This document shows, in pieces, positions 36,742 through 63,374 of a DNA stretch of 64,000 bases (within the stretch, counting starts at the first letter, position 1; the number at the start of each line of letters is the position of its first letter). A model generated the notes under the pieces. It was not told the origin of the DNA and did no database searches. It saw only the letters and a list, made by a program, of their open reading frames with translations. Origin of the DNA: Desulfatiglandales bacterium (GTDB taxonomy: Bacteria > Desulfobacterota > DSM-4660 > Desulfatiglandales > HGW-15); the NCBI GenBank assembly GCA_963667015.2, contig CAXXJJ010000001.1, forward strand, positions 1,312,001 through 1,376,000, written 5' to 3'. Position numbers and translations under genes: made by a program.

Positions 36742-37035
36742 TTAGTCATAATCAGGCACTTCAAACTCAAGTTTGGTTATGCAGTATTTTTCCCATTTGG
36801 GAGTCACATCATCAAAAAGAATGTTCTCTTCCTTGTAAACGTCATCTGTCACAACATAATTTTCCTGGAGATATACGATAGATTCATCGGTAAGTGTTCG
36901 TGGTTCTTCTACCTCTTTTCCATCAATTTCTAATTTTTCTTTCCGTGCATTTTGTGTATTCTCTTTCCATTTTCGATATTTTCTCATATCGCCTAAGTGA
37001 TATGCCTTGCAATATTTGCTCATAACTTTAATCAT
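36742..37035 (-). CDS. Small hypothetical protein coupled to the thioesterase gene
   Basis: RBS and overlap with the thioesterase stop; KYCKAY...YLQENYVVTD...ILFDDVTPKW. Confidence 0.75.
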   Translation of the reverse strand: MIKVMSKYCKAYHLGDMRKYRKWKENTQNARKEKLEIDGKEVEEPRTLTDESIVYLQENYVVTDDVYKEENILFDDVTPKWEKYCITKLEFEVPDYD

Positions 37036-37792
37036 GGTTTCTTCTCCTATATCCTGCCACTTCCTGATTAATAATATTAATAACTTCATCCAGGTTTGTA
37101 TTTATGAACAGATGTTTTCCCTGAATCATTTTCAAGTTAAAATCCTTACTTGTATGTGCATTCCACGCCTCTGCATCCTCGCGGCTGACCCGCTTGTCAG
37201 ACATTCCCCATAGCGAAGTAATACTGCAATCAAGTGGTTCGTCTTCAGTGTATTTCATTGTATTGAGCATCTCTATGTCCGCCCTTAAAACCGGAAGAAC
37301 CATGTCCAATAAATCCCTGTTATGCAGAACTTCATCCACCATACCTCCGAATTTTATCAATTTATCAATAAACTCTTTTTCTTCCATTGTATAATGAAGT
37401 GCATCCGGTTTTTCCGGAAGATGCGGAGCTCGAGCACCTGATATAAAAATATGTGTTGGAAGGGGCAAATTATATTTTCTTAAATAGCGCGACATATAAA
37501 AACTGATATGAGCGCCAAGGCTGTGACCAAAAAACATAAAAGGCATATTTAAAACAGGGAGGATCGCAGGAGTAAGGTCATTGATTAGATCAGAAATCCT
37601 TCTGTAAGGCTTCTCATTAAATCGATTTTCACGGCCCGGAAGCTTAACCATACATAGTTCAATTTCGTTTGATATATTTTCAATCCAATTAAAAAAAACA
37701 GATGCTCCGCCACCAGCATAGGGGAAGCAAAACAGCCGCACCCTTGCGTCAGGTTGTTCTTTTGGGCAAACAACCCATCTATTACTGTACAA
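37028..37792 (-). CDS. Type II thioesterase
   Basis: LFCFPYAGGGAS, GHSLG, LRAD and GKHLF motifs. Confidence 0.92.
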   Translation of the reverse strand: MYSNRWVVCPKEQPDARVRLFCFPYAGGGASVFFNWIENISNEIELCMVKLPGRENRFNEKPYRRISDLINDLTPAILPVLNMPFMFFGHSLGAHISFYMSRYLRKYNLPLPTHIFISGARAPHLPEKPDALHYTMEEKEFIDKLIKFGGMVDEVLHNRDLLDMVLPVLRADIEMLNTMKYTEDEPLDCSITSLWGMSDKRVSREDAEAWNAHTSKDFNLKMIQGKHLFINTNLDEVINIINQEVAGYRRRNHD

Positions 37793-37937
37793 AATTCAAC
37801 TCTCTATTAATATTATTATCAATAACGTCAGCTCATAAAAGCGGATTTTTCTGAAACTTTTAAGGAAAAGAATAATTTTCACAATCGAACCTATCACGCT
37901 TTTCATTCCCGCCGCTTTTCAGATATTTATTAGGAGA

Positions 37938-38903
37938 CTAAGTTCTGAAGGAGCCTGCTGAAACACTCCTTTCATTATTTTGGTCTTCAACAAAATAGTT
38001 GAATCCATTTTCACCAAAGAGCCAGTTTGCACATTCATCTCCCAATTCAGATATGGCTAACTCTTTGTATTCTAAAATATCATTAGTACTGAGATAGTCC
38101 TTCCATTGACTGTTTTTACCATTTAGGTAAAAAGTGCCGGCTCCGCCAACTAATGTATCGGATCCTTTAGGAGTAGTTTTTTCAGGATTTTTTTTCATCC
38201 ATTCATAAGAGCAATACTCCATAATTAGTTCCATTTGCTCGGAGGTAACCGGAATCTCGAGAAATTCTGCAACCCCTGATATTTCTCTTTCGAGGTCTTC
38301 TTTAAGAGAATTAAAATGTATGAGTTTAATAAAAGGTAGATTGCGAATATTCCACCAACTGCGGACGTTATTCCAAAAAGGCCACATTGGATAACCATCT
38401 TCATATAACCAGCTTTTCCAAAACTCATAAAAATTGCCAGTAGGGCGGTTTAGTGGCGGGCCAACTCGACCTTCTATTTTCGCTTTAAGGGCAAAGGATC
38501 CTTTACGAAATTTTTTCAGCCAATTATATAGACTCCAAACAATATCGGGTGCATTTCGTGCCACATATATATATTTTGCTTTTGAAGAAAAGACCAGAGT
38601 ATTTGCGGCTAAATGAGTTTTAATAAATCGTCTATGGGATTGATTATTTAAAATATTAAATTTTTCCTCTTTTGACAGATAAAGAAGATCTAGCCAAAAA
38701 GATAAGGTACTTGTAAGGAGATCGGGGTTGCCTCTAAAAATTAATTGCCCTACTATCTGCTGGACCCATGCAGTACCTGACCTTGCCCAGGATGCTATTA
38801 CGATGTCATCATCACGATATTTAAAATCATTCCATATAGTAGAATCAATGGTATGGTTTTGAAATTCATGTGTCTTTTTGGGCATAAAATCATTATTTAA
38901 CAT
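37938..38903 (-). CDS. PAPS-dependent sulfotransferase (Sulfotransfer_1-like)
   Basis: RDDDIVIASWARSGTAW (variant 5'-PSB loop), RFIKTHL and YVARNxxDxxxS motifs. Confidence 0.85.
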   Translation of the reverse strand: MLNNDFMPKKTHEFQNHTIDSTIWNDFKYRDDDIVIASWARSGTAWVQQIVGQLIFRGNPDLLTSTLSFWLDLLYLSKEEKFNILNNQSHRRFIKTHLAANTLVFSSKAKYIYVARNAPDIVWSLYNWLKKFRKGSFALKAKIEGRVGPPLNRPTGNFYEFWKSWLYEDGYPMWPFWNNVRSWWNIRNLPFIKLIHFNSLKEDLEREISGVAEFLEIPVTSEQMELIMEYCSYEWMKKNPEKTTPKGSDTLVGGAGTFYLNGKNSQWKDYLSTNDILEYKELAISELGDECANWLFGENGFNYFVEDQNNERSVSAGSFRT

Positions 38904-39063
38904 TTTTTTACCTCCTGATTGGTAATATTAAATTATATAAACAGAAGACACTTTAGTAGGATACTTTATCTAATGGTGGAATAGGAGCATCATCGGTTGT
39001 AATGATTGTAGTTGTTACATCTAAAAAACCAATAGATGTTTTGTGCAGATGACTGTAATACTA

Positions 39064-40001: not shown

Positions 40002-41525
40002 CTAGTTTGCACCATCAATCACACTCGTATGTGGTTTCATTTTCATTTCCGACATTCGTATTTCAGGGTTTTTAATAATCTGGTTAAGAAGCAGCACATA
40101 GTCATTTGAAAGATTTACAATTGTTGATCTGTCATAAAATGAATCTTTATATGTGAAAGTTCCATTTATGGTTTCTCCTGCCTCCCTTAATACTGTCTCA
40201 ATTGGAAATAGAGCAAATGTTGGCTGTTCTACTTTCAGGGGTATAAACATCATAGGTTGAGGCATATTCTGGGATCTCGCACTATCAGCCTCTCTTTCTG
40301 TTTTGGGTTGAATTTCCTGTTTTTCAGATGCGGTCTCCGAAGACTTGGCAGATTTCCCCCCAAAACTTTGTAGCTGAAAGTTAACGAGCGGGCTCTGGGG
40401 CGGGATTATTTTTCTGACAAGGCAAAAGGGTATATAATTGTCATATACTTTTAAAAGTGTTTTATTTGTTCTATCAAGAACTTCAAGGAAAGTTAAATCC
40501 CTGTCCAGTTCTATATAATAAAATTGCCAATCCATAAAACATCCCATTAAAGGTTCTGTTTCCTTTTGAGTGCGATTTGCAACAACAAAAGTGAAATAAT
40601 TATATTTATATCCGCTGAAAATATGAATCAGCTCTATAAATGCAGCATATAAAATTGTGAACAGAGTAACACCATTTTCCTTGCATATTTTTTTTAGTTC
40701 CCTGGTCATTTGTGGCAATAATACTACCGGAACAATACCACCACCATAAGATAACTTATCTGGTTCATGGTCAACAGGTAAAAAAGAGTTTATTTTTCCA
40801 GTGAACTGCTTCCAGTATTCAAGTTTTTCTTCAAGATATTCCCCGGAAAACCGCTCCCGTTCCCATATTGCAAAGTCAGCATATTGTAGTGATAACTCTG
40901 GAAAAGATATCGGTATGTTTAATGAGTAAGATTGATAGCGAGTCAATAATTCAAATTGTAACACTCCCATAGATAGGCCATCTGTAGCAATATGGTTAGT
41001 AAAAATATACAGGGCATGTTCGTCTTTAGCCGTTATTATGGTAAATGATATCATTAACTGGTCTTTAAAAAATGAAAATGATTCCGATGCCCTGCTCAAT
41101 GCTATTCTATTAAGTTCATCTTTTCTTTCATCTTCAGTTAAATTATCTAAGTCTATCACTTTAAGAATATTATCTGGCACTTCATTTATAACCTGGTATG
41201 ACTGTTTCTCAACTACTTCATAACTAGTACGTAGAATTTTATGCCGTTTTACTATTTCCTGGATCGCTTTATGAAAAGCTGATAGATTAACTCGTCCTTT
41301 TATTAGATACCCTAGCGCGGGACCTGGAGCTCTATCTTTTTCAGGGTCATGAACCCCATTAATTACGGGCATTAATATTCCTTCCTGAATATATGAAACA
41401 GGTATTCTACCTTTTTTATCCTGGGGGATAATTCTTTCATTATTTTCTATTTCTTTCTGTTTTTTTAACTTCAAAAACATTTCTCTTTTTTCTGCTAAAG
41501 AAGACGGAATTGCGTGTTCAGGCAT
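40002..41525 (-). CDS. Stand-alone NRPS condensation-domain protein (variant NHIATDG motif)
   Basis: PVSYIQE, RHKILRT, NHIATDG, LQYADFAIWE, TLF and ANR motifs. Confidence 0.85.
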   Translation of the reverse strand: MPEHAIPSSLAEKREMFLKLKKQKEIENNERIIPQDKKGRIPVSYIQEGILMPVINGVHDPEKDRAPGPALGYLIKGRVNLSAFHKAIQEIVKRHKILRTSYEVVEKQSYQVINEVPDNILKVIDLDNLTEDERKDELNRIALSRASESFSFFKDQLMISFTIITAKDEHALYIFTNHIATDGLSMGVLQFELLTRYQSYSLNIPISFPELSLQYADFAIWERERFSGEYLEEKLEYWKQFTGKINSFLPVDHEPDKLSYGGGIVPVVLLPQMTRELKKICKENGVTLFTILYAAFIELIHIFSGYKYNYFTFVVANRTQKETEPLMGCFMDWQFYYIELDRDLTFLEVLDRTNKTLLKVYDNYIPFCLVRKIIPPQSPLVNFQLQSFGGKSAKSSETASEKQEIQPKTEREADSARSQNMPQPMMFIPLKVEQPTFALFPIETVLREAGETINGTFTYKDSFYDRSTIVNLSNDYVLLLNQIIKNPEIRMSEMKMKPHTSVIDGAN

Positions 41526-41761: not shown

Positions 41762-41821
41762 AGTATTTTGTTTTTAGGGTTTGTAATTGACGATTACACC
41801 GTGTTTCATCATAGATATATT

Positions 41822-42169
41822 TTATATAACACCCTCATCCATCTCTTCTTCACCAAGCACTTCATTGTATGTATCTTCAATTTTCTGAGCTATTGCTTTT
41901 ACGGTCTGAAGTTCAAAGATTGTTCGAACAGGCAGTTCCATACCAAAAACTTCATATATTAGGTTTATTATACGGCTTGCCATTAATGAATTGCCGCCCA
42001 GTTCAAAAAAGTTATCATGTCTGCCGATTTTCTCTATCTTGAGGACACTAGACCATATCCGGGTAAGCTCTTCCTCTATTTCACCCACCGGGATCTCATA
42101 AGGAGGAGGGGCTTCTAGATCAAGAGAATCGAAGTGTAGATCTTGATTGTTTTGTTTAAGCGGTTCCAT
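41822..42169 (-). CDS. Stand-alone peptidyl carrier protein with acidic C-terminal tail
   Basis: IW...DNFFELGGNSL phosphopantetheine site; ends in EEEMDEGVI. Confidence 0.9.
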   Translation of the reverse strand: MEPLKQNNQDLHFDSLDLEAPPPYEIPVGEIEEELTRIWSSVLKIEKIGRHDNFFELGGNSLMASRIINLIYEVFGMELPVRTIFELQTVKAIAQKIEDTYNEVLGEEEMDEGVI

Positions 42170-42534
42170 AGAGTTACCTTTCATTTGAAACTTGATACTT
42201 GGTCCTTGATACTGGATATTGGTTTAATTATTGATACTTGGTGCACCGAAAAATTCATAGAGATCTTCGTATGGTTACTGGATAGTGGCTTTTCGATACC
42301 AGATTAAAAATATATCTTACCTTACTATCAAGCGTTTCATTATTTTATTTAAATATGTGTAATCATGTTCAGAAAACAAAATGAGAGATAATAATTATAC
42401 TGGTCTTTATCGGCAAGCGTATGGTGAAAAAGCTAAGTAGCCAGATGAGTAATTTGATGATGAGTTATACAGTACTTTTATTAAGCCAAAAGCCCAAATT
42501 TAAGGAGTTGTTAATTGAACTAAAGAGAATTTAA

Positions 42535-42735
42535 TTAAAGCTTAAAAGGGTTCACAATGGTGTCTCTAAGGCTTGATCTTGATGTTAGTTGCATAAACAT
42601 GAGATGTACAAATTGATTCCAACGATCAAATGATCTTGCCTTTCGGCCAGTTCCATGTCGTTTTTCAAGGGTTGAAAAATCATGTCTCGGAATAATTTTA
42701 AGCATGCTATTAAAAAGTGTGTTACTATGTGCCAT
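42535..42735 (-). mobile_element. IS4-family transposase N-terminal remnant (DUF4372-like)
   Basis: MAHSNTLF...IPRHDF...WNQFVHLMFMQLT...SLRD, truncated. Confidence 0.65.
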
Positions 42736-42874: not shown

Positions 42875-44398
42875 CTAGCAAAACTCATCCAGCTTTTTAT
42901 TTGGGTCTCCTATGACATCAATTACAATTTCCTTAAAATACCCCAGAAATCTTTTAATAGTCATTTCATCATATACATCAGCTCTATATATCATTGAACC
43001 AACTATTTTATTGGGGCTTTCATGGAATTCAATAGCACATGAGGTTAGATAACCTTGACAACCATGGCGTACACCCGGAGGCTCAACGGGTGTTTTTTTG
43101 ATGTTTGAATTTTCCAGAGACGTATCATCACTTACAGTTAAGATACTAATACCCGGGGCATTAAACTTAACACCTTTATCCAGTAACGCATCGCGTACCC
43201 AGTCAAGCGGTATGGGCTGATGAGTCTGAGCATTATTCATAGTATTCGAAACACGTTCAGTTATTTCCTGAAAATCAGGATTGCCTGAAAGGTCTGTTTT
43301 ATAGGCAATCTCCGACGCAAAATCACCAATCACATTCATTAAACCAGAATTCAAACGCCCTGTCTGAAGAGACACTACTACCGGATCTTCCTGTCCGGTC
43401 ATTCTCCAGATTGCTATTTTATATGCTGAGAGCAAGATGCAAAAAAGCGTTTTTCTAAAATCCGCTGCTAGTTTATTAATGGCTTGAGTTGTATCCGAAT
43501 CAAGTTCAATTATCTCCTCAGCGCTTTCTCCAACAGGTGCTCTATTCGCTAATGGACTATTATCAGACAACAGACCTGTAAAAGGCGTTGAGCGGAGTAA
43601 CTCTTTCCAGTAATTTAAATATTCAACTCCTCCTGGGCTATTTTTCCATGTCTCAAGGGATGACAAATAATCTAAGTATCGATACTTGAGCGGGCGTACT
43701 CTTGGGGGCGTACTTGTTAGAACAGCATTATAATATGCTAAAATCTCCTGAAAAAAAATACCAGTAGAAATCATATCACCAATAGCATGGTGCAGAGATA
43801 CTCCCAATATATACTCATCATAAGAAATTCTGATAAGGAACACTCGATATAATGGGCCTTTAAGATCATATTTTTCCCAGATCAATTCATTTGCTATGTT
43901 GCTTACTTCCTTTTCTCTTTGTTCCGGTGTTTTACCTTTAACTGTGATTTCCTTAAATGCGGGTGACTGTTTTGGCTGCTTTACCAGGTATAAATCATCA
44001 GTGTTCTTTTCAATCGAATAGTTCAATACCTCATGGCGGTTAAGCAATGCCGAAATAGCTTTTTCAAGAGCATCAGCATAGAACTCACCTTTCTGCCTTA
44101 TAACTGAATAGGTAACATTCGCAGTTGTAATCTCCATAATACCATTTGAGTAATCTTTCCACAGGAATTGATTGGGCAGTAATGCTTTTCCATCTGAAGT
44201 GGAAATCATTTTAAATTGCAGGCGGGAAGGATCGGTGAGTTTTAAATGGTGCAATATTTCTAACTTTTTTTCCTTAATAGATGAGAGGATATCCTGAGTC
44301 ATTGCCCCTTTCTGAGCTCGATACCCCAACTCCCCATCTTTGAGGTACAAATGGACACCTCTAGCAATGCAGTCTTCAAGAAATGCTTCTATTTTCAT
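42875..44398 (-). CDS. Stand-alone condensation-domain protein with an N-terminal TubC-type (beta-hairpin) docking domain
   Basis: N-terminus GVHLYLKDGELGYRAQKGAMT...KLEILHHL; RHEVL, GPLYRV, HHAIGD and YW motifs. Confidence 0.85.
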   Translation of the reverse strand: MKIEAFLEDCIARGVHLYLKDGELGYRAQKGAMTQDILSSIKEKKLEILHHLKLTDPSRLQFKMISTSDGKALLPNQFLWKDYSNGIMEITTANVTYSVIRQKGEFYADALEKAISALLNRHEVLNYSIEKNTDDLYLVKQPKQSPAFKEITVKGKTPEQREKEVSNIANELIWEKYDLKGPLYRVFLIRISYDEYILGVSLHHAIGDMISTGIFFQEILAYYNAVLTSTPPRVRPLKYRYLDYLSSLETWKNSPGGVEYLNYWKELLRSTPFTGLLSDNSPLANRAPVGESAEEIIELDSDTTQAINKLAADFRKTLFCILLSAYKIAIWRMTGQEDPVVVSLQTGRLNSGLMNVIGDFASEIAYKTDLSGNPDFQEITERVSNTMNNAQTHQPIPLDWVRDALLDKGVKFNAPGISILTVSDDTSLENSNIKKTPVEPPGVRHGCQGYLTSCAIEFHESPNKIVGSMIYRADVYDEMTIKRFLGYFKEIVIDVIGDPNKKLDEFC

Positions 44399-44673: not shown

Positions 44674-44973
44674 CTATATCTGAATTCCATTTTTTAATAT
44701 TTCTTTTAAAAACCCGCTTTCATCATGGCTTTTATCTAATATAATGGGTTCGATTCTGTCGTCAACTTCTCTTCTTAATTTCCATAACAAAGGTCTGGTT
44801 GAAAAGTAATCTCCTTCTATTTTATCAACTATGATTGCAACATCTATATCGCTGTCTTCTCTATTATTCCCTTTTGCATAGGAACCGAACAGAACCATCT
44901 GATCAAACAGCATGTTTTTTAAAAGCAGTTTTTTATATATTTTAAGTTTTTTTATAGCCTCTGTTTTATCCAT
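44674..44973 (-). CDS. Minimal nucleotidyltransferase (MNT) antitoxin
   Basis: LFGSYAKG...SDIDV motif. Confidence 0.9.
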   Translation of the reverse strand: MDKTEAIKKLKIYKKLLLKNMLFDQMVLFGSYAKGNNREDSDIDVAIIVDKIEGDYFSTRPLLWKLRREVDDRIEPIILDKSHDESGFLKEILKNGIQI

Positions 44974-55262: not shown

Positions 55263-55573
55263 AAAAACTCCTTTCTCTATATTATTATGAACCGCTAAGT
55301 TCGCGAAGACCGCGAAGTAAAGATATTTCATTTGTCGGGTAGTCCGCCAAAAGCGATACGGACATACGACAAATGAAATGATTCACTTTTATTAAGATAG
55401 ATTTCGATATGCTGAGGCAGTAATCATGGAATAAGGTGTAAAGCACACATCGAATAATAAAGAAAAATACAACCTTTGGCCGTATCGTAAAGCGGCGGGT
55501 TATTGCCGATTACTCGATAGGGACAAAACTTGGCGTCCTTTGCGACTTGAGCGAAGTGGGCGAATTGTATTTA

Positions 55574-55957
55574 CTATTTATTTATTGTCTTGATTGGGAA
55601 ATTGCACATAGCCGAATCGATGCTTGCCAAAGGAATTTTTTCCAGCTTGGCCTGCGCGGCAAGCATACGATCAAAGGGATCACGATGAGGTACATTCCAT
55701 CTTCCGGCAAGTTGGGCATGCTCCAGAGTTACATCCAATCCCTGAAACCCTGCCTGCAAAACCCATTTAGAGGCATCTTTTGCTACTTCTGAGGCTTCAG
55801 GAAGCTTCCCCAGACGATATTTTGTAGATATCTCCCATACAGAAGCTGCACTGACATATATTACATTATCAATATCCTGAATATGTTCTCTGATATTAAC
55901 TGGCAATCGGGAATCATCAAAAAGCCACCATAAAAAAATATGGGTATCCAGAAGCAT
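55574..55957 (-). CDS. vapC: VapC/PIN toxin
   Basis: LLDTHIFLW, SVWEI and HRDPFDRMLAAQA motifs. Confidence 0.92.
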   Translation of the reverse strand: MLLDTHIFLWWLFDDSRLPVNIREHIQDIDNVIYVSAASVWEISTKYRLGKLPEASEVAKDASKWVLQAGFQGLDVTLEHAQLAGRWNVPHRDPFDRMLAAQAKLEKIPLASIDSAMCNFPIKTINK

Positions 55958-55968
55958 TTTGTCTTATC

Positions 55969-56202
55969 CTATTCCCACCTGGCCAGTTCTTCATCAGAAA
56001 GTGGTTCAAAAAAAGCATCTGTTACTTTTCCTTTGGCAATACCGGGAATTCTTTTATTTTCTTTTCTAAATGGAACCAGGCGAGCACAGGGCTCACCTGA
56101 TCGTGCTATAATTATTTCTTCTCCGGAATTTACGCGAGCCAGTAATTTTGAAAAATTTGTCTTTGCTTCATGAATATTAACAATTTCCATTTTTGCCTCC
56201 AA
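55969..56202 (-). CDS. Phd/YefM antitoxin
   Basis: VNIHEAKTNFSKLL...GEEIIIAR. Confidence 0.92.
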   Translation of the reverse strand: MEAKMEIVNIHEAKTNFSKLLARVNSGEEIIIARSGEPCARLVPFRKENKRIPGIAKGKVTDAFFEPLSDEELARWE

Positions 56203-56296: not shown

Positions 56297-58069
56297 TTAC
56301 ATCAGAGTTGATAAATTTTCCTCATCAAAAAGCTTAAAATATGCAGCGGAAGTAATTCGCTTCTTTAATTCATTCCGACTGACTTTTCCTGATGCTGTTC
56401 TGGGCAGAGAATCAACTATGATAAATTTTATTTTCTCCAAATAGTTATAAGTTATATGGTACAGCTCCTGCTTTAGACTTTGCTCATCAATATTCTCAGT
56501 CTTCTTTGGTAATACTGCTAATACGATATTTTCACATTTATCCGAACTGGGAAACGCCAATGCAACCACTTCATCTACCTGTGGATTGTTATATGCTGCC
56601 AATTCCAATTCCCTGGCTGAAACAGTGTGAATGCCACAATTGATAATATCCTTTATTCGCTCTTTTACATACAGGGTTCTTTCAGAGTTCAGATATCCCA
56701 AATCACCTGTTCTCAACCATCCACGATCGAGCGAATTGCCTGTTTCATTAGTGTCAGAACAGTACCCCATCATGACCATGGCTCCACGTATACATATTTC
56801 GCCAGTTTCTTCGGGTAAAAGGGTCTGGCCGGTATCATTAATAATTTTTATATCAACGCTTGGGAGAACAGTTCCTGCGGAATCAGGATTTTTCAGTAAT
56901 TCATACCCTGAGACATTACTAATTGACCCACAGGTTTCTGTCATGCCGTAACTTGTCCCAATACTTATTGAAGGAAAACTATTACCAATCTCTTTTAAAA
57001 AATTCTGGTTTAATGCAGTTCCATGTATGTTAAGATTTGTTAAAGTTTTTAACCTGCATATGGCATTGTCTGATCTCAATAATTCTCTTATCATATCTAC
57101 TGAAGCGCCATTTATTGACCTTACTTTCTCTTTCTCGATAAGTGTGGCTGCTTTATTTGATTCCCACTCATTCATTAAGACGATTTTACCACCAAGGTAA
57201 CACATCAGCAGTATCTGGGAGTACCCGCCAATATGGGATAAAGGGGATAACAGCAATGAACACGGCTGGTTATTTGATCCATTAGAATGCCGGTCTGTTT
57301 TTGGTGTGCGATAGTTCATCATAAAACCGCCAAGCATCATGTTCATTATTCCTGTTGTCATATTACGATGACTGAGTACGACCCTTTTGGGAGTGCCTGT
57401 AGTCCCTGAAGTAAAAGAAATGAGGGCTTCATCGTCCGGATCTGATTTTGAGAATTTGAAGATTTGTGAAGCATCTTCATTGGATGCAACATCTGGCAAA
57501 ACAAAGCAGGATATGTTTTTATCTCCACTTGCCACATTCTGAGGATATTCACTTTTATTTGAAATCAGGATAATAGAATAATCTGAGTCAACAGTATTCA
57601 ATTTTTTAATATTATCTTGATCAGTTATTATAAGTCTACAGCTTGTTAATTCGATCGCATTAGTGACAGTAGCTTTTTCTGTATCTGCATGCATGATAAC
57701 TGATACAGCCCCTGCCATTTGAATTGCTATAAAAGCAATGACCCATTCATAGCTATTTTGCATTAAAAGAGTAATTCGATCGCCTTTTTGGATTCTGTAT
57801 TGCTGCTGTATACTGCTAGCGAAATATTTTGCATGTTCAATGACCTGAGAAAATGTAAACCGTGAATCACCATGTACAATAAATTCGTTTTGCCTAAAGG
57901 ATGCAGCTTTTATGAAAACCTCCTGCAAGGTTTTAGGGCCATGCGGAAATATTTTGCATGGTATACCCTTGATAACCGTATCTTGAAGTTCGAAAGGGGA
58001 GCCCTTTTGTGTAAGACGATTAATAATATTATTCATTTTATTCTCACTAATCAAACAACTTACCTTCAT
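56297..58069 (-). CDS. Adenylate-forming enzyme (acyl-CoA/acyl-AMP ligase-like)
   Basis: FTSGTTGTPK, YGMTE, GEICIRG, WLRTGDLG and PRTASGKV motifs. Confidence 0.9.
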   Translation of the reverse strand: MKVSCLISENKMNNIINRLTQKGSPFELQDTVIKGIPCKIFPHGPKTLQEVFIKAASFRQNEFIVHGDSRFTFSQVIEHAKYFASSIQQQYRIQKGDRITLLMQNSYEWVIAFIAIQMAGAVSVIMHADTEKATVTNAIELTSCRLIITDQDNIKKLNTVDSDYSIILISNKSEYPQNVASGDKNISCFVLPDVASNEDASQIFKFSKSDPDDEALISFTSGTTGTPKRVVLSHRNMTTGIMNMMLGGFMMNYRTPKTDRHSNGSNNQPCSLLLSPLSHIGGYSQILLMCYLGGKIVLMNEWESNKAATLIEKEKVRSINGASVDMIRELLRSDNAICRLKTLTNLNIHGTALNQNFLKEIGNSFPSISIGTSYGMTETCGSISNVSGYELLKNPDSAGTVLPSVDIKIINDTGQTLLPEETGEICIRGAMVMMGYCSDTNETGNSLDRGWLRTGDLGYLNSERTLYVKERIKDIINCGIHTVSARELELAAYNNPQVDEVVALAFPSSDKCENIVLAVLPKKTENIDEQSLKQELYHITYNYLEKIKFIIVDSLPRTASGKVSRNELKKRITSAAYFKLFDEENLSTLM

Positions 58070-60188
58070 AAAAATCCAGTTGCTCTGCGATAACCGGTAT
58101 CAAACCATGTGGTGTCATCTGGAATATTCGATCTGCAAGTTTAATAGTTTCCGGTCGATGAGCTACTATTATGCGGCTCATCTTCAATTCTTTAATGGCA
58201 GTATTAACGAGTTTTTCGTTATCAACATCAAGGTGGCTGGTGGCTTCATCAAGAAACATCAGTAAAGGATTCTTATATATTGCCCTGGCAAGTAATATCC
58301 TCTGAATCTGCCCACCCGACAGGGCCACCCCCAGATTTCCTACCAGGGTGTTATACTGCATAGGCATGGCCATGATATTTTTATGGATCGCGGCAAGATC
58401 AGCGGCATGCTCTATAGCCTCCTTGTCAGGGGTTAAATCAAAAAAACAGATATTATCAGAAATAGAGCCTGTTAACAGGCGGTCATCCTGCATTACTACG
58501 CTGACTTTGTTCCTGTAGTTCTGAAATCCTATCTTTTTAATATCCATATCATACATCGTTATTTCGCCATGAGAGGGCTGATAAAGACTTGACAGGAGTT
58601 TTATCAACGTGGATTTTCCACATCCTGACGGGCCGATAATCGCAACTGTCTCTTCGTTTTCAAGCGAAAAATTTATATTGCTGAATATGAACGGGTGATC
58701 TTCCGAATACCTGAATGCCAGATCCCTGACTTCGAGAATCGGTTTGGATGATATATTGATGGATGGTATCCCCGATCCTTCCATTTTCTGTTCCGGCTCT
58801 GTATAAACAATATCAGCGAGCCTTGTTAAGTGGACATCCAGTAACCGGTATTGAATAGCCATATCTAAAAGGCTGAGCGCTCTTCCCATAAATGATCCGC
58901 CCCAGGAGGTAAAGGCCATCAGCATACCGATTGACATTTCATTGCCAAGAACCGCCTTTGCACCGATATAGAGTATAAGTACTGATCTCAGACTGGATGC
59001 AAATCCGTTCACAACCCCTATCCATATGCCGAATTTCTGGACCCTGAGGCCTGTATTTATGACATCCACAAAATAATTCTGCCACAGGGAGAGCCTGTCT
59101 GTCTCCTTGCCAAAGAGTTTGATGCCCTGCATGGCTGTGATATTTTCCATGAAATTTGTGTTTTCTTTTGCTGCAGCCACAATCTGTTCTTCGGTCCTGT
59201 TTCTGATCCATCTGTATGTTGAAAGGCGGATTATCGCATAAAAAACAACCGCTCCAAAAACAATAAAAGAAAGTATTCTGCTGTAAATAAGCATCATTAT
59301 AAGGGTTATTATGACCATAAGTCCGTCGAGGATGACCGAAATGATACTGGATGTTAAAAAATTCTGGATATTTTTCTGTGAACCGAATCTTGAAACAATA
59401 TCGCCTATGTGACGTTTTGCAAAATACTCAAGCGGCAGTTTTAATAGATGCCTGGAAATATTGATGGCAAACTGGAAACCAAGTTTGGTTGTAAAATGCA
59501 TGACAACATAAGAACGAAGAATGCTTGTGGCGGTCTGGATAATTACAAGTAAAAAATAACCGATTATCAGTATCTTTAATAATTCAATGTCCCGCGCCAC
59601 AAGAACATCATCAATGACAAGCTGGGTAAAAAAAGGGGACACAACTGCAAACAATTCCAACAGCAGAGACAGTATAAGTACCTGAATTATACCCCTTTTG
59701 AGCCCTGACGCCCTTGTCCACAACTGTGAGATCTTAAGTTTTTTTACCTCGTTCTCTTCCTTGAAATCCTTTGTGGGAGTCAGCTCAAGTGCAACACCCG
59801 TAAAATGTTTGCCTAATTCCTTAAATGTAATCTCTTTAATTCCAACAGCAGGGTCATGAATAACTATTTTATTTTTTGAAACCTTTTTAAGTACTACAAA
59901 ATGATTCATGTCCCAGTGCAGGATTGCAGGCATTTTGAGTTTGCTTATTTCATCAATCTCAACCCTTACAGCCCTGGATGACATATTCATCTTTTCTGCA
60001 ATTTTGATGACATCTTTGAGCGTCACACCATGCTGTGAAACAGAATACTTATTCCTCAGAGTGATAATATCGATCTTATGCCCAAAATACCCTGACATCA
60101 TGGCAAGACACGCCAGGGCGCACTCGGAATGTTCCGTTTGAAGTATGGTCGGTAAATGGCGTCCGGATTTAAAGATAATTCCATCCAT
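58047..60188 (-). CDS. C39 peptidase-containing ABC exporter (PCAT; CvaB/MchF/RaxB-like)
   Basis: QTEHSECALACL, HWDMNHFVVL, GPSGCGKST and LSGGQ motifs. Confidence 0.95.
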   Translation of the reverse strand: MDGIIFKSGRHLPTILQTEHSECALACLAMMSGYFGHKIDIITLRNKYSVSQHGVTLKDVIKIAEKMNMSSRAVRVEIDEISKLKMPAILHWDMNHFVVLKKVSKNKIVIHDPAVGIKEITFKELGKHFTGVALELTPTKDFKEENEVKKLKISQLWTRASGLKRGIIQVLILSLLLELFAVVSPFFTQLVIDDVLVARDIELLKILIIGYFLLVIIQTATSILRSYVVMHFTTKLGFQFAINISRHLLKLPLEYFAKRHIGDIVSRFGSQKNIQNFLTSSIISVILDGLMVIITLIMMLIYSRILSFIVFGAVVFYAIIRLSTYRWIRNRTEEQIVAAAKENTNFMENITAMQGIKLFGKETDRLSLWQNYFVDVINTGLRVQKFGIWIGVVNGFASSLRSVLILYIGAKAVLGNEMSIGMLMAFTSWGGSFMGRALSLLDMAIQYRLLDVHLTRLADIVYTEPEQKMEGSGIPSINISSKPILEVRDLAFRYSEDHPFIFSNINFSLENEETVAIIGPSGCGKSTLIKLLSSLYQPSHGEITMYDMDIKKIGFQNYRNKVSVVMQDDRLLTGSISDNICFFDLTPDKEAIEHAADLAAIHKNIMAMPMQYNTLVGNLGVALSGGQIQRILLARAIYKNPLLMFLDEATSHLDVDNEKLVNTAIKELKMSRIIVAHRPETIKLADRIFQMTPHGLIPVIAEQLDFYEGKLFD

Positions 60189-61436
60189 CTAGATTTTTCC
60201 TCTCAGGCTGTAGAGCGGCTCAAGGAGCCATTCAAACAGGGTGCGCTTATCAAGAACAACATCAGCGGAAAGCATCATCCCGGGTTTTAAAGGCAGCTCT
60301 TTTCCATAGGCTAAAATATTCTGTTTTTCCAGTTCCGCTACGACTTTATAAACCGGTTCCTGAAATGATAATCCCGAAGTGGGTTCCCCGGGCATAATAA
60401 CGCTTTTGGCAATCTGGTGTATTTTCCCTGTATAGGTGCCGAATTTTTGGTAAGGGAATGCTTCATAGCTTATATTTACCTCCTGGCCCATATCCATGAA
60501 ACCTATCGAACGAGTCGGGAGATACAGATTGGCCTGAAGCTGCGACCCTTCAGGTATTATGGAAAACATGGGTGCAGATGGATTCATCCTTTGTCCCACA
60601 TTTGCCACAACCGATGTAATTCTGCCGGAAACAGGCGCTGTAAAAATAATTTCTCTTTGGCCTTCTACCTGCGCCCTCTGTTTTGTGATTTCAGATACCT
60701 GGCTTTCTATACTTACGATCTCACGCTCGCTGTTGATTTTTAATGCCTTTATATGAAGGGGTATATTCTCAAGGCTTGAGGCGGCCTCTTCCAATCTCAT
60801 CGAAAGCGACTGATATTGCTGTTTTTGTTCAAGATATTTTCTGTAGAAAGTTTCAACATCCATGCTGGAAATAAACTCTTCCGAAAGCATTGTTTTTGCC
60901 TTTTCATAATTACGCTTTTCCATTCTCAGGGTCTCAGACTGGATATCTATTAATTCTTTCAGCCGTCCAATCTCGGTTTTTAATCGTCTGGCCTCGGCTT
61001 CCTGCGCCTGTATCTCTGTAACGACTCTTTCATTCTCGAATCTGAGTCTTTTTTTCAGGTTCGCCTCCTGGATCTTCAGCTCATCAATAATTTTTACCCC
61101 GGTATATTCACCGCCATTTGCCCGTTGATCGATCATTACGCTGAATAATTCATCATTCTGCTTCACAAACATCCCTTCTGTAACCTTGAGCTCAGACAGT
61201 ATCCCCGCCTGAGGCGGAAAGACCGACACCATGCCCTGCTGTGGAACGATAATTCCTGCGACCTTTTCTTTCCGGGCATAGCTGTGTGTTACTAAAAAGA
61301 AAATTACTATTATTGTAATTCCAACCAGAAAGGTTGCCAGCACATAGTAGGAGATTGGTTGTGTCAGGATGATATCACCGTATAATTTTTCCCGCTGGTG
61401 ATCTACTGCCTGTTTTCTGAATAATGGTAGTGTCAT
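60189..61436 (-). CDS. Membrane fusion protein (HlyD; CvaA/MchE/RaxA-like)
   Basis: LFRKQAV N-terminus, one TM segment, coiled coil, AFPYQKFG and LKPGM motifs. Confidence 0.93.
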   Translation of the reverse strand: MTLPLFRKQAVDHQREKLYGDIILTQPISYYVLATFLVGITIIVIFFLVTHSYARKEKVAGIIVPQQGMVSVFPPQAGILSELKVTEGMFVKQNDELFSVMIDQRANGGEYTGVKIIDELKIQEANLKKRLRFENERVVTEIQAQEAEARRLKTEIGRLKELIDIQSETLRMEKRNYEKAKTMLSEEFISSMDVETFYRKYLEQKQQYQSLSMRLEEAASSLENIPLHIKALKINSEREIVSIESQVSEITKQRAQVEGQREIIFTAPVSGRITSVVANVGQRMNPSAPMFSIIPEGSQLQANLYLPTRSIGFMDMGQEVNISYEAFPYQKFGTYTGKIHQIAKSVIMPGEPTSGLSFQEPVYKVVAELEKQNILAYGKELPLKPGMMLSADVVLDKRTLFEWLLEPLYSLRGKI

Positions 61437-61505
61437 TGGTTAATCCTTTTTAAAAAAATCTTGATACTTGATACTGGATCCTGGTTACTGGTGTATTTGA
61501 TTTTA

Positions 61506-61604
61506 ACCACGGAGTTCACGGAGAACGTCAAAAGCCTAAAACATATCTCTCGCTGAGCTCACAAAGAACACAGAGAAAGACAAAGGCTTTTTACAATTTA
61601 TTTT
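61506..61604. repeat. About 100-bp repeat; inverted partner at 63620-63729
   Basis: Its reverse complement aligns with 63620-63729 with scattered mismatches. Confidence 0.75.
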
Positions 61605-61736
61605 ATTTCTATTTAGCCAACAAGAGCGCGGAGTGCAAAACTTATAATAATTAAATCTCGGTGCCTTCTATATCCCTGGCTAGATTAGATAAGCAGAAAG
61701 TTTTACTGGTAACCAGTATCTGGTATCCTGCATCAC

Positions 61737-63374
61737 TCACTCATTCGGGACTATAGGTTCCAGCTCTACCTTTGCTGCCCCGAGTAATGTCCCGGTAGCA
61801 TAGGCTAGATCAACCATAGCTATCTGATATTCGGTAATAGCTACTATCTCCATTATCTGTGCTTCAGAAAGTTTTGTCTGAGCATCAAGAACATCTGTTG
61901 ATGAGGAGAAACCGAGCTCATACTGTTTTTTTTCTGTTTTATACTGCTGGTCTGCAAGGATGGTTGTCTGCATGGTAGCCTGTATTCTCTGCCAGTTGGC
62001 TTCCAGTTTATCAATCTGGTTCAGGACCTCATTTTCGATTTCTGTTTCTTTATTTTCTTTAGTTGCCAACCTTTGTGATCGTTCATATATTGCTCTTCTA
62101 TAAGTGCTCTTTGCAGCCTCATTAAACAACGGTATTGAAAACTGAAGACTGAAATTGTTATCATTATAGTCATTATCCAGTAACATATCATATAAGTTGT
62201 GTCTGTTATCTCCCAGTGCGTTAATTCTATAGTTATACCCTATGGTTAAGAGAGGGAGTTTTTGGTTTTTAAGGTAATCGATTGTGCTGCTGTCCTGGGC
62301 GAGTTGAAGTTCCAGTTCAAGGAGTTCCATACGGTTTTCAATAGCATTCTGTACCATCAGATCATTATTAAATTCATAGTGGATTGGTTCTGGTAGAGTT
62401 GAAGGTATTACAACTGTTTTTGTTCTCATGCCCAGGCCTTTTTTGTTCAGCACCCGTTTGAGAGATCTTTCGGTATCCCTGACATCATTCTCCGCCCTGA
62501 TTATGGCTTCAAGTTTTTCTGCCATACTTGTTTCTGTCCTTATAACCTCCACTTTGGACTTCAGGCCCAGTTCAACAAAACGTTTAGTCTGCTCAAATAA
62601 GGCTTTTGAAAGATCATACTGCTGCTTTCGGACTTTCAGTAATTCCCTGACAGCGAAGAGTTTCCAGTAGGCAATATCAACATTTGCAATAATACGTATG
62701 GCCTGAAGTTTTGTTCTTGTATCTATTATTTTACTGTTATATTGAGCCATGCGTATTCTATAGGTGTTTACATTTTTGCCAGCGTTTCTTAATAACGGCT
62801 GGCTGATCGATATACTGGTGGCACTAGAATATGATGGGTTTAATATTGACCACTCAGAATTAGATTTACTGCGGGAGTCAGCAATATTAAAATTGAGGGT
62901 TCCGCCTGTTCTCAGAGGCATATCAACGCCTATATTGGCTGTGTGCCGGTTAATGCTCGACCCATCAAGAAGTGAAGCCTGTGGTGTGTCAGTGTTATTG
63001 TATTCAATTCTACCTGAATAGATTGCTTCAAACTTTGCCTCTTCCTGATTTACTGCCTCTTTCGCAATTGAAGGATTAATTAATTGGACTCTAAGGTCCA
63101 GATTGTTTTCAAGGGTATATGCGCGACACTCTTCTAATGAAAGTGTAATCTCTTTAAGCGCAGATTCGGTTGTTTCAGCTTTGTCTTCCTTTTTTTGCTG
63201 AACTTTATTCAAATCTAATACATCAATCTGTCTGACAGTTACTTCCGGTACATTTAAAACAGGTGGAGCTTCGTAAAACTCTATTACTTTATGTATATAG
63301 GAACAACTGCTGCAAATGAATAATATAATTATCAAGAGTGGTAATAGATAACTTTTTACTGGTGACCTTAGCAA
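61737..63374 (-). CDS. TolC-family outer membrane efflux lipoprotein
   Basis: Lipobox-like signal, ISQPLL motif and two OEP helical repeats. Confidence 0.88.
   Translation of the reverse strand: MLRSPVKSYLLPLLIIILFICSSCSYIHKVIEFYEAPPVLNVPEVTVRQIDVLDLNKVQQKKEDKAETTESALKEITLSLEECRAYTLENNLDLRVQLINPSIAKEAVNQEEAKFEAIYSGRIEYNNTDTPQASLLDGSSINRHTANIGVDMPLRTGGTLNFNIADSRSKSNSEWSILNPSYSSATSISISQPLLRNAGKNVNTYRIRMAQYNSKIIDTRTKLQAIRIIANVDIAYWKLFAVRELLKVRKQQYDLSKALFEQTKRFVELGLKSKVEVIRTETSMAEKLEAIIRAENDVRDTERSLKRVLNKKGLGMRTKTVVIPSTLPEPIHYEFNNDLMVQNAIENRMELLELELQLAQDSSTIDYLKNQKLPLLTIGYNYRINALGDNRHNLYDMLLDNDYNDNNFSLQFSIPLFNEAAKSTYRRAIYERSQRLATKENKETEIENEVLNQIDKLEANWQRIQATMQTTILADQQYKTEKKQYELGFSSSTDVLDAQTKLSEAQIMEIVAITEYQIAMVDLAYATGTLLGAAKVELEPIVPNE

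Follow-up and report, generated by a model that had tools for sequence, protein, structure and literature searches.

The window, a 64,000-nt stretch of the 7.19-Mb genome of a sulfate-reducing bacterium, carries genes for an exporter, a double-glycine-type precursor and a set of free-standing NRPS-like enzymes. Open reading frame calls, Pfam and NCBIfam recovered all 17 items named in the original prediction, each on the minus strand and in the predicted order, including the ligase gene that overlaps the end of the PCAT gene (by 23 nt) and the hydrolase pseudogene (bla1). Two further genes extend the cluster beyond the window, a NusG/RfaH-like gene that crosses its end and then an Sfp/HetI-type PPTase gene, an order repeated in the same-genus genome G009. 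The features, with the intervening mobile DNA, are as follows.

64443-65246, outside the window: Sfp/HetI-type PPTase (Pfam ACPS 4e-19; NCBIfam HetI 4e-66, below cut-off)
63895-64440 (in the window 63895..64000, the 3' part), minus strand: NusG/RfaH-like antiterminator (Pfam NusG 4e-18; NCBIfam RfaH 2.5e-23, below cut-off)
61737..63374, minus strand: TolC-family outer-membrane channel (OEP PF02321 3e-41)
60189..61436, minus strand: HlyD-type membrane-fusion protein, MFP (HlyD_3 4e-18; NCBIfam type_I_hlyD 8e-36, below cut-off)
58047..60188, minus strand: PCAT, a C39 peptidase fused to an ABC exporter (Peptidase_C39 5e-38, ABC_membrane 7e-38, ABC_tran 5e-30)
56297..58069, minus strand: AMP-binding ligase of the ANL superfamily (AMP-binding 9e-67)
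55574..56202, minus strand: Phd/YefM-PIN pair between ligase and PCP1 (PF02604 2e-13, PF01850 4e-15)
54921..55331, minus strand: carrier protein PCP1 (PP-binding 2e-13; GGDS motif)
53167..54539, minus strand: bla1, pseudogene copy of bla2 (two in-frame stops and one frameshift)
52748..53134, minus strand: 128-aa protein, possibly NTF2-like
51995..52234, minus strand: 79-aa double-glycine-type precursor with a 14/15-residue leader (MRELTMEEMGAVAG-A) that ends in VAGA
51728..51922, minus strand: 64-aa hydrophobic protein (no Pfam or NCBIfam match)
51256-51780, minus strand: DDE transposase fragment (DDE_Tnp_1_4 3e-10)
49921-51207, plus strand: IS4-like transposase (DDE_Tnp_1 8e-11, DUF772)
47812..49188, minus strand: bla2, intact Cys-nucleophile (CxxK) beta-lactamase-fold enzyme (PF00144 3e-43)
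46544-47482, minus strand: IS200-like transposase, in one inserted block (44674..47482) with the next two pairs
45555-46207, minus strand: Phd/PIN pair (Pfam)
44674-45338, minus strand: HEPN/MNT pair (Pfam)
42875..44398, minus strand: C1, free-standing condensation enzyme (Condensation 5e-53; N-terminal TubC_N docking domain 2e-14; HHAIGD)
42535..42735, minus strand: IS4-family transposase N-terminal fragment between C1 and PCP2 (DUF4372 5e-21)
41822..42184, minus strand: carrier protein PCP2 (PP-binding 9e-17)
40002..41525, minus strand: C2, second free-standing condensation enzyme (Condensation 3e-51; motif NHIATDG)
39064-39762, minus strand: SAM methyltransferase
37938-38903, minus strand: PAPS-type sulfotransferase (9e-41)
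37028-37792, minus strand: type II thioesterase (1e-42)
36742..37089, minus strand: 115-aa ORF in the conserved flank, outside the cluster proper

Although the 17 items are indeed co-oriented, the gene run is not uninterrupted, because three toxin-antitoxin (TA) pairs and several transposase genes fill about 5 kb within it. The 115-aa ORF, originally counted as a member, belongs instead to a conserved flank: it is 73–85% identical and lies beside the same flank genes in G003, G006, G007 and G009, whatever stands upstream. The cluster found here is partly eroded: one gene copy is a pseudogene, IS and TA genes have inserted, and the Yej-like importer of its relatives is missing. This copy could be a decaying remnant that makes nothing, its operon broken by the insertions and its frames open since decay is recent. 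Such decay would fit the load of transposase and TA genes (one transposase, located between the precursor block and bla2, runs in the opposite direction), the loss of one bla copy and the lack of the importer present in G003, G004 and G009. However, the 13 core genes all retain full-length open frames and catalytic motifs, and TA pairs occupy the same two sites elsewhere in the genus. A PIN gene occupies the ligase-PCP1 site in G009 and G006 (with its Phd partner in G009), and HEPN/MNT is 88–92% identical upstream of C1 in G007, G009, L035 and G003 (MNT only; the contig starts there). The pairs have therefore long been resident and are not recent damage. Purifying selection acts on the whole family, and decay thus concerns this one copy only; we consider it distinctly unlikely.

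The PCAT retains Q17, C23, H96 and D112, is the single C39 match in the genome, and is 84–91% identical in G004 and G009, where TolC is 73–79% identical at the same position. Only two Condensation matches, C1 and C2, occur in the entire genome, and tblastn found no further PCP or C there. The absence of a modular NRPS and of a canonical A domain thus holds as predicted; a modular NRPS just past the 64 kb, envisaged as an alternative source of the C/PCP genes, lies neither in the following 20 kb, which contains no large ORF, nor elsewhere in the genome.

By sequence, the ligase is an acyl- or aryl-acid ligase of the CoA-ligase type: among solved structures its closest relatives are 4-coumarate:CoA ligases (E 4e-49), and its best NCBIfam match, below cut-off, is a long-chain-fatty-acid-CoA ligase. 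It does not count as an NRPS A domain. The GGxS serine is present in the PCPs. The acidic C-terminal tail of PCP1 ends in ESGVI and that of PCP2 in EEEMDEGVI, a motif conserved across the genus; in most of the distant loci the acidic tails are related. C1 belongs to a sharp family of about 44 proteins, with HHxxGD invariant in 18 of 18 members, and the xHxxxDG of C2 is kept in 11/11 aligned orthologues. PDB matches for both include SgcC5 (4znm), a free-standing C enzyme that uses a carrier-bound donor. Neither C enzyme has a visible signal peptide, consistent with a cytoplasmic location. The type II thioesterase is 67–70% identical in G003, G004 and G009, and the methyl- and sulfotransferases are non-orthologous across the genus (the G004 sulfotransferase is 26% identical; G009 has an O-methyltransferase).

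The predicted CxxK character of the hydrolase is confirmed: the Cys of bla2 aligns with the SxxK serine of LACTB and IS11, and Cys replaces the serine nucleophile (GCxxK) in 107 of the 108 family members. The bla2 structure model (pLDDT 93.6) has a two-domain fold for which Foldseek returned IS11 and SurE (TM 0.75–0.78), so that in predicted fold the enzyme agrees with NRPS thioesterases of the PBP type, SurE for example. The bla1 pseudogene is 75% and 71% identical to bla2 by tblastn over residues 1–458 (about 74% overall). Downstream of bla1, the 128-aa ORF proposed to be NTF2-like is present, but its family assignment is tentative (Pfam DUF1824 E 0.002; Atlas leads 0.88–0.90); this gene follows the bla-fold gene in both the window and G011, on the evidence of a 53% identical ORF in that position in L052.

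The precursor has a hydrophobic, Gly/Ala-rich core behind a leader common to at least 30 ORFs in related loci. In six frames of the 7.19-Mb genome the leader regex matches once, at the precursor ORF itself, so the leader is no chance match. Among 61 related genomes, six contain matches to the precursor profile, all of them within cluster loci; the profile was built partly from these loci. The adjacent 64-aa protein is putatively immunity-like, judging from its position.

Five other genomes of the genus hold together PCAT, ligase, carrier, Cys-type bla, double-Gly precursors and C domain(s), with same-leader precursors adjoining the C/PCP genes. The order PCAT-ligase-PCP1-bla-precursor(s)-C1-PCP2-C2 is kept in G004, G006, G008 and G009, and G011 carries a compact form, PCAT-precursor-rhomboid-ligase-PCP1-bla-NTF2-like-C. 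Beyond the genus, we evaluated 19 distant metagenome loci whose C1 is 43–48% identical to that of the window and 57–77% identical among themselves. In 16 of them, one or two ORFs with the 15-residue leader MRELTFEEMDEVAGG directly follow C1, and next comes a membrane protein of immunity-like type (Rce1/CPBP or about 110 aa); in eight of these loci PCP2 and then C2 follow. Genomic flanks vary between these loci, as do exporters (MacB-type, MFS transporter, or none within the contig). From the genus and these distant loci, the linkage of precursor and C/PCP genes is therefore old and specific. The expected co-occurrence of export, precursor and C/PCP genes thus stands for precursor and C/PCP genes, but the link to PCAT, MFP and TolC is seen within the genus only. 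We conclude that this is a real, conserved and so far undescribed cluster family with bacteriocin-type precursors among free-standing NRPS enzymes.

We tentatively favor, with slightly less than even confidence, a reading in which a dissociated ('type II') NRPS-like acyl-transfer set is genetically coupled to class-II-type double-glycine precursors and their immunity-like genes, and in which its C domains would acylate the peptide. The Sfp-type PPTase would prime both carrier proteins, and the 4-coumarate-CoA-ligase-like ANL enzyme would activate a carboxylic acid and load it on PCP1; this acid is probably either a fatty acid or an aromatic hydroxy acid. The free-standing C domains and/or the Cys-nucleophile bla could then move the carrier-bound acyl unit onto the leader-bearing ribosomal peptide. 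Methyl- and sulfotransferases may tailor the acyl unit, the type II thioesterase may clear misloaded carriers, and the PCAT would cut after the Gly-Gly/Gly-Ala motif and export the product via MFP and TolC. In favor of peptide acylation, the genome has no C domain besides these two and no second C39 peptidase, leaving no other NRPS source, and catalytic motifs are kept in C1, C2, the PCPs and bla. In the compact G011 form, with one ligase, one carrier and one C, the peptide is the only encoded candidate acceptor.

Several observations run against acylation of the peptide or suit a second explanation, in which two products share one regulon: starting from a free amine or amino acid, the ligase, carriers, C enzymes and bla would build a small molecule, N-acyl or aryl-capped, and the peptides would be unmodified class II bacteriocins, merely co-regulated and co-located. 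The core peptides, when compared, are hypervariable, with no conserved residue or C-terminus as a common acceptor; such a pattern is more usual for bacteriocin cargo that is polymorphic and unmodified. The 15-residue leader is minimal and fully explained by PCAT recognition, with no extra segment for a modifying enzyme. G007 (a MAG 89% complete) keeps open C1-PCP2-C2 frames, and searches of it found no PCAT, ligase or bla orthologue and no precursor. In favor of two products, exporters vary by lineage (PCAT, MacB-type or MFS). Against acylation, a radical-SAM/SPASM maturase lies beside one leader-bearing peptide in G004, and the locus may therefore just gather double-Gly peptides of various kinds that use one exporter. 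In G003, G004, G009 and five distant loci, C2 is followed by an SBP_bac_5/YejB/YejE/YejF-like importer; this YejABEF-type peptide importer has no role in the acylation scheme, whereas import suits a reusable small molecule such as a metallophore, signal or synergist. Nevertheless, precursor and immunity genes lie inside the C1...PCP2 operon in most evaluable distant loci, and both remain in the cluster after rearrangement within the genus, which is difficult to account for unless they are functionally tied to it. Moreover, a search of 61 related genomes turned up no member of the leader family outside these clusters, and G011 encodes no amine-forming enzyme. We regard two separate products as rather unlikely.

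The importer also bears on a third explanation, self-protection or sensing, whereby a re-entering secreted peptide is inactivated by cytoplasmic acylation through the C/PCP set. Its permease, directly after C2, scores over the cut-off for YejB (microcin C transporter), and the apparently cytoplasmic C enzymes would be suitably placed. The most frequent architecture among the distant loci is C1-precursor-immunity-PCP2-C2-importer, with neither a ligase nor an A domain nor a PCAT found within up to 10 kb; this absence fits self-protection and leaves peptide acylation with no evident loader for PCP2. However, immunity-like membrane proteins already stand beside each precursor, the importer is absent from the window's own cluster, G006 and G007, and the PPTase, NusG-like antiterminator, type II thioesterase and tailoring enzymes are traits of a biosynthetic cluster. 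We find this role very unlikely.

The pairing of precursor and free-standing NRPS enzymes, not described so far, may yield a new kind of modified peptide. Inactivation of a re-entering peptide would resemble MccE or MccF, which detoxify processed microcin C. A separate small molecule would follow the VibE/VibB/VibH logic of vibriobactin, in which VibH, like SgcC5, is a free-standing C enzyme acting on free acceptors. In support of acylation of the peptide, the match to 4znm and the ligase-PCAT overlap are joined by bla2, whose predicted structure has the same two-domain fold as SurE and Ulm16, both of them carrier-offloading enzymes.

Every gene named in the original prediction is present on the minus strand between 36742 and 63374, in the order that was claimed, as established from ORFs and from Pfam and NCBIfam matches:

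minus strand: TolC
minus strand: MFP
58047-60188, minus strand: PCAT (C39 peptidase, ABC membrane and ATPase domains)
56297-58069, minus strand: AMP-binding ligase
54921-55331, minus strand: carrier protein PCP1
53167-54539, minus strand: bla1, a broken Cys-type (CxxK) beta-lactamase-fold gene
minus strand: 128-aa protein
51995-52234, minus strand: 79-aa double-Gly-type precursor
minus strand: 64-aa hydrophobic protein
47812-49188, minus strand: bla2, the intact bla gene
42875-44398, minus strand: C1, a free-standing condensation enzyme with a TubC-type N-terminal docking domain
41822-42184, minus strand: carrier protein PCP2
40002-41525, minus strand: C2, a second free-standing condensation enzyme
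minus strand: methyltransferase
minus strand: sulfotransferase
minus strand: type II thioesterase (TEII)
minus strand: 115-aa ORF

The ligase and PCAT genes overlap by 23 nt. Order and strand agree with the co-oriented run described originally, but the run is not uninterrupted: approximately 5 kb of TA and IS genes lie inside it (Pfam). The TA genes form two Phd/PIN pairs and one HEPN/MNT pair; the IS genes are an opposite-strand IS4-like transposase, an IS200-like gene, and two transposase fragments. Transposase genes and fragments within the cluster number four and belong to three IS families (49921-51207, plus strand; 51256-51780, 46544-47482, and 42535-42735, minus strand). Between the duplicated bla genes lie the precursor block and the IS4-like element, suggesting an IS-mediated duplication or the import of a second cluster segment. 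The pairing of a CxxK hydrolase pseudogene with an intact copy had been correctly recognized, and both copies carry Cys in place of the SxxK serine; bla1 spans the full length of the intact copy at ~74% identity and contains two in-frame stops and one frameshift. That the cluster copy in this genome is non-functional we consider improbable; this reading concerns the present copy alone and is compatible with the other readings weighed below.

Some of the interrupting genes recur at fixed positions. The PIN gene between the ligase and PCP1 (window 55574-56202; loci L021 743-1359 and L024 14245-14628) occupies the same site in the window and in G009 and G006, two other genomes of the genus, so it appears to be an old operon resident rather than a fresh insertion; its Phd partner is confirmed by Pfam in the window and in G009. 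The HEPN/MNT pair lies immediately upstream of C1 (window 44674-45338; loci L020 15172-15836, L002 9022-9686, L035 1439-2100, and L025 6-302) and is 88–92% identical across lineages, compared with only 58% for C1 itself. The pair would thus seem either to have evolved far more slowly than the biosynthetic genes or to have been exchanged recently, and its fixed position suggests a role in cluster stabilization.

The 115-aa ORF, proposed earlier as a cluster gene, was rejected as a member: it is a conserved flank element that stays beside its flank neighbors in G003, G006, G007, and G009, all further members of the genus. An aldo/keto reductase gene at 35494-36698 is apparently split: an 81-aa ORF (36453-36698) encodes the N-terminal part, and a 250-aa ORF (35494-36246) the remainder plus a 4Fe-4S domain. 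It may be a frameshifted gene at the cluster edge. Beyond the window's other end the cluster continues with a NusG/RfaH-like gene (63895-64440) and then an Sfp/HetI-type PPTase (64443-65246). Outside the cluster, the window holds two energy-metabolism gene sets typical of sulfate reducers (1-12868 and 18824-22572): a long Hdr/Flox-like set with CCG-domain proteins, an MvhD-like FlpD, a NuoF-like flavoprotein, and a 1154-aa receiver-ferredoxin-FAD fusion protein, and a multiheme cytochrome c3-family/NrfD/4Fe-4S membrane complex. The remaining window also encodes sigma-54 regulators. Together these genes mark the host as a deltaproteobacterium of the sulfate-reducer type and led us to reject a cyanobacterial origin, which the TA/IS load had at first suggested.

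The export half is an ordinary Gram-negative class II microcin system. By Pfam, the PCAT contains C39 (5e-38), ABC_membrane (7e-38), and ABC_tran (5e-30) domains; residues Q17, C23, H96, and D112 are present, which we take from the family to be catalytic, and genes for an HlyD-type MFP and an OEP-family (TolC) protein lie directly upstream.

The expectation that no modular NRPS accounts for the carrier and condensation genes held, as the 20 kb past the window contain no NRPS domain and a longest ORF of 797 aa. Across the whole genome (7.19 Mb, four contigs), the two Condensation matches and the one Peptidase_C39 match all fall inside this cluster, and tblastn with the cluster proteins as queries recovered no further C or PCP; AMP-binding relatives outside the cluster are 24–28% identical to the ligase by tblastn. 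A canonical A domain is likewise missing, as originally noted: the cluster's sole AMP-binding gene scores best to CoA ligases, and no amino-acid-activating A domain was found anywhere in the genome, leaving a CoA-ligase-type ANL enzyme as the only partner. Among solved structures, 4-coumarate:CoA ligases match it best (E 4e-49 to 5e-46), and its top NCBIfam models are fatty-acid-CoA ligases, every one below cut-off. The carriers match PP-binding with 2e-13 (PCP1) and 9e-17 (PCP2) and both hold the GGxS serine in GGDS/GGNS motifs, and the PPTase just outside the window is ACPS/HetI-like. C1 and C2 are of ordinary NRPS type, with Txo1/Txo2 and TycC as best PDB matches and 4znm (SgcC5) among those listed; for C2 the best PDB match is 8z0q. 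In C1 the motif reads HHAIGD, and all 18 of 18 sequences share the H, H, G, and D of HHxxGD. In C2 it reads NHIATDG, of which the second His and DG are retained in 11 of 11.

Both carriers have acidic C-termini (...QEVESGVI and ...EEEMDEGVI) that are conserved in the genus and have related forms in distant loci. The idea that these tails serve solely for docking on the TubC-type domain of C1 is weakened by G011, another genome of the genus, where PCP1 has a similar tail (ending EEDTDII) and no C1 was found in the 84%-complete assembly. The tails also resemble the mid-leader of the precursor (...EEMGAVAG; ...EEMDEVAGG in relatives). Carrier tails and leader might compete for one site, for example the C1 docking domain or the C39 domain, or the likeness could be a chance resemblance of acidic amphipathic stretches.

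The intact bla2 provides a further candidate for acyl transfer. Modeled by AlphaFold from 47 sequences (pLDDT 93.6, as against 37.8 from a 5-row alignment), it shows a beta-lactamase/PBP fold with a C-terminal beta-rich second domain. Full-length Foldseek matches include esterase IS11, the NRPS-offloading cyclase SurE (E 4e-27, TM 0.75–0.78 over the full length, ~20% sequence identity), the Pyrococcus PBP homologue Pab87, and the PBP cyclase Ulm16 (3e-22), and the bla Cys aligns to the SxxK Ser of LACTB and IS11. The family comprises 108 cluster representatives (proteins P0052–P0159; 32–81% identity), after which scores fall from E-62 to E-17. GCxxK is present in 107 of the 108, the remaining member being a fragment without that region, and Ser is found in the three nearest outgroup proteins with a recognizable motif. 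By source name, members come from Thermodesulfobacteriota, Desulfatiglans, Acidobacteriota, Bacteroidales, and Gammaproteobacteria MAGs. Equal contig sizes in the two match lists suggest that C1 and bla members share contigs in eight cases, and many bla members lie on long contigs without a C1-family member in the match list, so the bla family is wider than this cluster type. Within such clusters bla adjoins PCP1 in the window (there as pseudogene bla1), in five other genomes of the genus (G004, G006, G008, G009, and G011), and in the metagenome locus L031. By its predicted fold, bla thus resembles PBP-type thioesterases, is encoded beside PCP1, and would use a thiol nucleophile; transacylation via a thioester is its likely chemistry. 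We found no natural Cys variants of this fold in the literature searched, and the Cys-nucleophile SurE-fold family constitutes a new enzyme group, a new branch of the PBP/beta-lactamase fold.

In the scheme that we consider most likely, the PPTase would prime the carriers, the ligase would put a carboxylic acid onto PCP1, and the C domains and/or the Cys-PBP-type enzyme would hand the unit to the peptide, with the TEII editing the carriers; the PCAT would cut after the double-Gly motif and export the product via MFP and TolC. The NusG-like protein would keep the long operon transcribed, as LoaP/RfaH-type NusG paralogues act in long-operon transcription. An aromatic hydroxy acid would fit as the transferred unit, given the 4CL-like ligase, the family-2 O-methyltransferase encoded in G009, and the PAPS-type sulfotransferases. 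Modification of the peptide by the cluster enzymes is, on sequence grounds, a tentative reading to which we give slightly less than an even chance.

The leader match is confined to such clusters in the genomes searched. In six frames of the 7.19-Mb genome, the leader regex found one ORF, the cluster precursor. Of 61 related genomes, 6 contained the 10 matches to a 20-precursor profile, each of them within a cluster locus; the profile was built partly from four of the matched genomes, and the G011 peptide, which lies outside it, was still found (E 6e-4). The leader ends VAGA in the 79-aa ORF and GG in at least 30 related ORFs. Aligning the 20 precursors revealed a nearly invariant leader and no column common to the cores, which recur in two types, Gly/Ala-rich hydrophobic (as in the window) and aromatic-rich ending ...YDY..GS; their C-termini vary (GS, S, C, CP, SN, GF, QH, and others) with no conserved block. 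Cores without a common acceptor site and a leader without a spare recognition segment both count against peptide modification. A complex prediction for C1 (18-row alignment) with the precursor (20-row alignment), run without controls, scored 0.01 against a mark of 0.32 and weighs on neither side. The alternative, a co-regulated small molecule alongside an unmodified bacteriocin, we judge rather unlikely.

Among 61 related genomes, the window's own included, six of the ten others from the genus have C1 orthologues (58–80% identity), and the 50 from outside the genus have none; one further partial C1, from another genus of the same family, was found among 400 other sampled genomes of the phylum. 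G009 carries, in order, PPTase, NusG, TolC, MFP, PCAT, ligase, (Phd/PIN), PCP1, bla, double-Gly precursor(s), (HEPN/MNT), C1, PCP2, C2, (SBP, two permeases, and double ATPase), TE, (O-methyltransferase), and the flank, and G004, G006, and G008 follow this order with local differences; the G003 contig begins at MNT. In G004 (L018 15299-17474; L019 9093-11132) there are two extra cluster genes, a radical-SAM/SPASM-TPR maturase immediately upstream of a leader-bearing 59-aa peptide and a 679-aa protein whose single domain is an N-terminal C39, so this locus appears to collect several kinds of double-Gly peptide chemistry.

Two genomes of the genus carry reduced versions that bear in opposite directions on peptide modification. 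On one G011 contig is a compact form, PCAT, 80-aa precursor, rhomboid-TPR protein, ligase, PCP1, bla, 128-aa protein (53% identical to that of the window), and a single C2-like enzyme (39%), with TA genes next and ~9 kb from precursor to C. With one ligase, one carrier, one C, and the peptide as the sole encoded candidate acceptor, this locus offers the strongest argument for the peptide as acceptor. G007, an 89%-complete MAG, has only HEPN/MNT, C1, PCP2, and C2, set between unrelated genes; searches there for orthologues of PCAT, ligase, and bla (the best matches to the latter two being 29% and 31%) and for a leader-bearing ORF found none. Such retention of C-PCP-C alone speaks against peptide modification.

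Beyond the genus, C1 forms a sharp family in a 5.8-billion-protein collection: ~44 cluster representatives of ~500 aa, 41–81% identical and most with the docking domain, after which scores drop from E-111 to E-40. Scanning metagenome contigs with the C1 family alignment gave 24 loci, whose C1 is 43–48% identical to that of the window and 57–77% identical among the loci, with L031 apart at 45–50% to all. By source names, the cluster family occurs in several clades (Thermodesulfobacteriota, Acidobacteriota, and Bacteroidales MAGs). Nineteen loci have sequence beyond the C1 end and could be evaluated. In 16 of these the leader MRELTFEEMDEVAGG, or a close variant, opens one or two ORFs 80–250 bp past C1 on the same strand; the three others are L028 (a flank of just 231 bp), L033 (523 bp, genus-like), and L031 (a different architecture). 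Next to the precursor(s) is a membrane protein, either a Rce1/CPBP-type protease homologue or a ~110-aa hydrophobic protein, followed by PCP2 and C2 in all eight loci long enough to reveal them and by an SBP_bac_5 protein, two permeases, and a double ATPase in all five reaching further. DNA upstream of C1 varies by locus (RecG/PfkB, XdhC, a PTS gene, TatC/NikR, or a MacB-type exporter with a LolA-like protein). Apart from L031, none of the distant loci has a ligase, PCP1, bla, or PCAT on its contig, which in L030 extends up to 10 kb. In L031 the order is ligase, PCP1, bla (63% identical), MFS transporter, C1, zincin-like protein.

Precursor and C/PCP genes therefore co-occur both in the genus and in 16 of 19 evaluable distant loci, as the original prediction demanded of homologous loci, and the tie between leader peptide and C-PCP appears to have held across the architectures seen, L031 excepted, whereas exporter type and the ligase/PCP1/bla block vary between them. 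This pattern points to a strong and old genetic coupling, on the basis of which the proposed hybrid pathway is partly supported. Peptide modification leaves the loading of PCP2 unexplained at ligase-less loci and assigns no function to the Yej-like importer. One of its permeases scores above the NCBIfam cut-off for YejB, the microcin C importer permease. This YejABEF-like importer, made up of SBP_bac_5, two permeases, and a fused double ATPase, is encoded after C2 in most relatives (L042 9038-14740; L036 5444-10966; L020 4613-10438; L018 914-7782) and is absent from the window, where the methyltransferase and sulfotransferase occupy its place. An immunity or sensing role is a further alternative, which we regard as very unlikely.

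In another reading, the ribosomal peptide itself would enter thiotemplate chemistry. Either the ANL ligase or the Cys-nucleophile PBP-fold enzyme, the latter via a thioester acyl-enzyme, would activate its C-end or an internal bond, and the peptide would move to the phosphopantetheine arm of a carrier. The C domains and the SurE-like enzyme would then treat it as an NRPS intermediate and might, for instance, amidate its C-terminus, extend it, or cyclize it. Such chemistry would explain how enzymes 43–48% identical between lineages serve hypervariable cores, and why C-PCP-C is retained around the precursor at ligase-less loci. We nevertheless see it as a long shot; if true, ribosomal peptides would for the first time be seen to pass onto an NRPS carrier.

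Few ribosomal/thiotemplate hybrids are known to us: siderophore-microcins, and the lipolanthines, goadvionins, selidamides, and lipoavitides, which are GNAT-acylated. None of these is known to involve NRPS condensation domains. The present system is a variant joining bacteriocin export with dissociated NRPS parts, and the chance that its product represents a new class of modified peptide is realistic. By placing double-Gly peptides within a C-PCP-C operon, it provides a testable candidate for a new maturation route in a small, clonable gene set, and an unmodified bacteriocin with a separate small molecule would, if true, still be a new co-regulated pair in anaerobes.

On the export side, we take class II microcins, double-Gly bacteriocins, and the colicin V CvaAB/TolC type to be the appropriate comparison. 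Shared with these systems are the 15-residue leader, which has hydrophobic positions at -4, -7, and -12 and ends in a Gly-Gly/Gly-Ala cut site, the C39 Cys/His/Asp in the PCAT, the MFP and TolC, and a small membrane immunity-like gene after the precursor. Their loci, however, are not known to hold carriers, condensation enzymes, ligase, PPTase, or thioesterase, whereas here such genes are conserved precursor neighbors across wide divergence. Separate ligase, carrier, and condensation proteins with a PPTase and TEII recall type II NRPS systems with free-standing C enzymes, such as SgcC5 of C-1027 (PDB 4znm) and VibH/VibE/VibB of vibriobactin; the present system differs in lacking an A domain in the genome and in having ribosomal precursors embedded in the operon. 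Like the PBP-type thioesterases SurE, Ulm16, and PenA, which published abstracts describe as offloading PCP-bound peptides, bla stands alone as a two-domain protein of the beta-lactamase fold, and its gene neighbors that of a carrier; unlike the SurE family, its nucleophile is Cys rather than Ser (CxxK versus SxxK).

RiPP lipopeptides (selidamides, lipolanthines, goadvionins, and lipoavitides) are described in passages of a recent paper as receiving an acyl unit from fatty-acid or polyketide machinery, some with double-Gly leaders, and those covered there are all acylated by GNAT-superfamily enzymes (PMC13647313, October 2026). These passages, and the other literature searched, make no mention of a C-domain route for such peptides. 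No GNAT family match was obtained among the cluster ORFs or the related loci scanned, and nowhere in the freely accessible full-text literature searched were condensation domains reported to act on double-Gly peptides or to cluster with them.

Siderophore-microcins (class IIb: MccE492, H47, and M) combine a ribosomal double-Gly peptide with a nonribosomal moiety and PCAT export; the moiety comes from an enterobactin NRPS encoded elsewhere and is attached by MceC/D/I/J-type enzymes to a conserved Ser-rich C-terminus. No such Ser-rich attachment region is conserved in the 20-sequence alignment, and no Pfam match to an MceC/MceD-type glycosyltransferase or esterase occurs among the 30 ORFs of the window cluster. 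In place of MceC/D/I/J, the candidate transferases here are the C domains and the Cys-type PBP-fold enzyme, and siderophore-microcins represent the nearest known precedent for the logic proposed.
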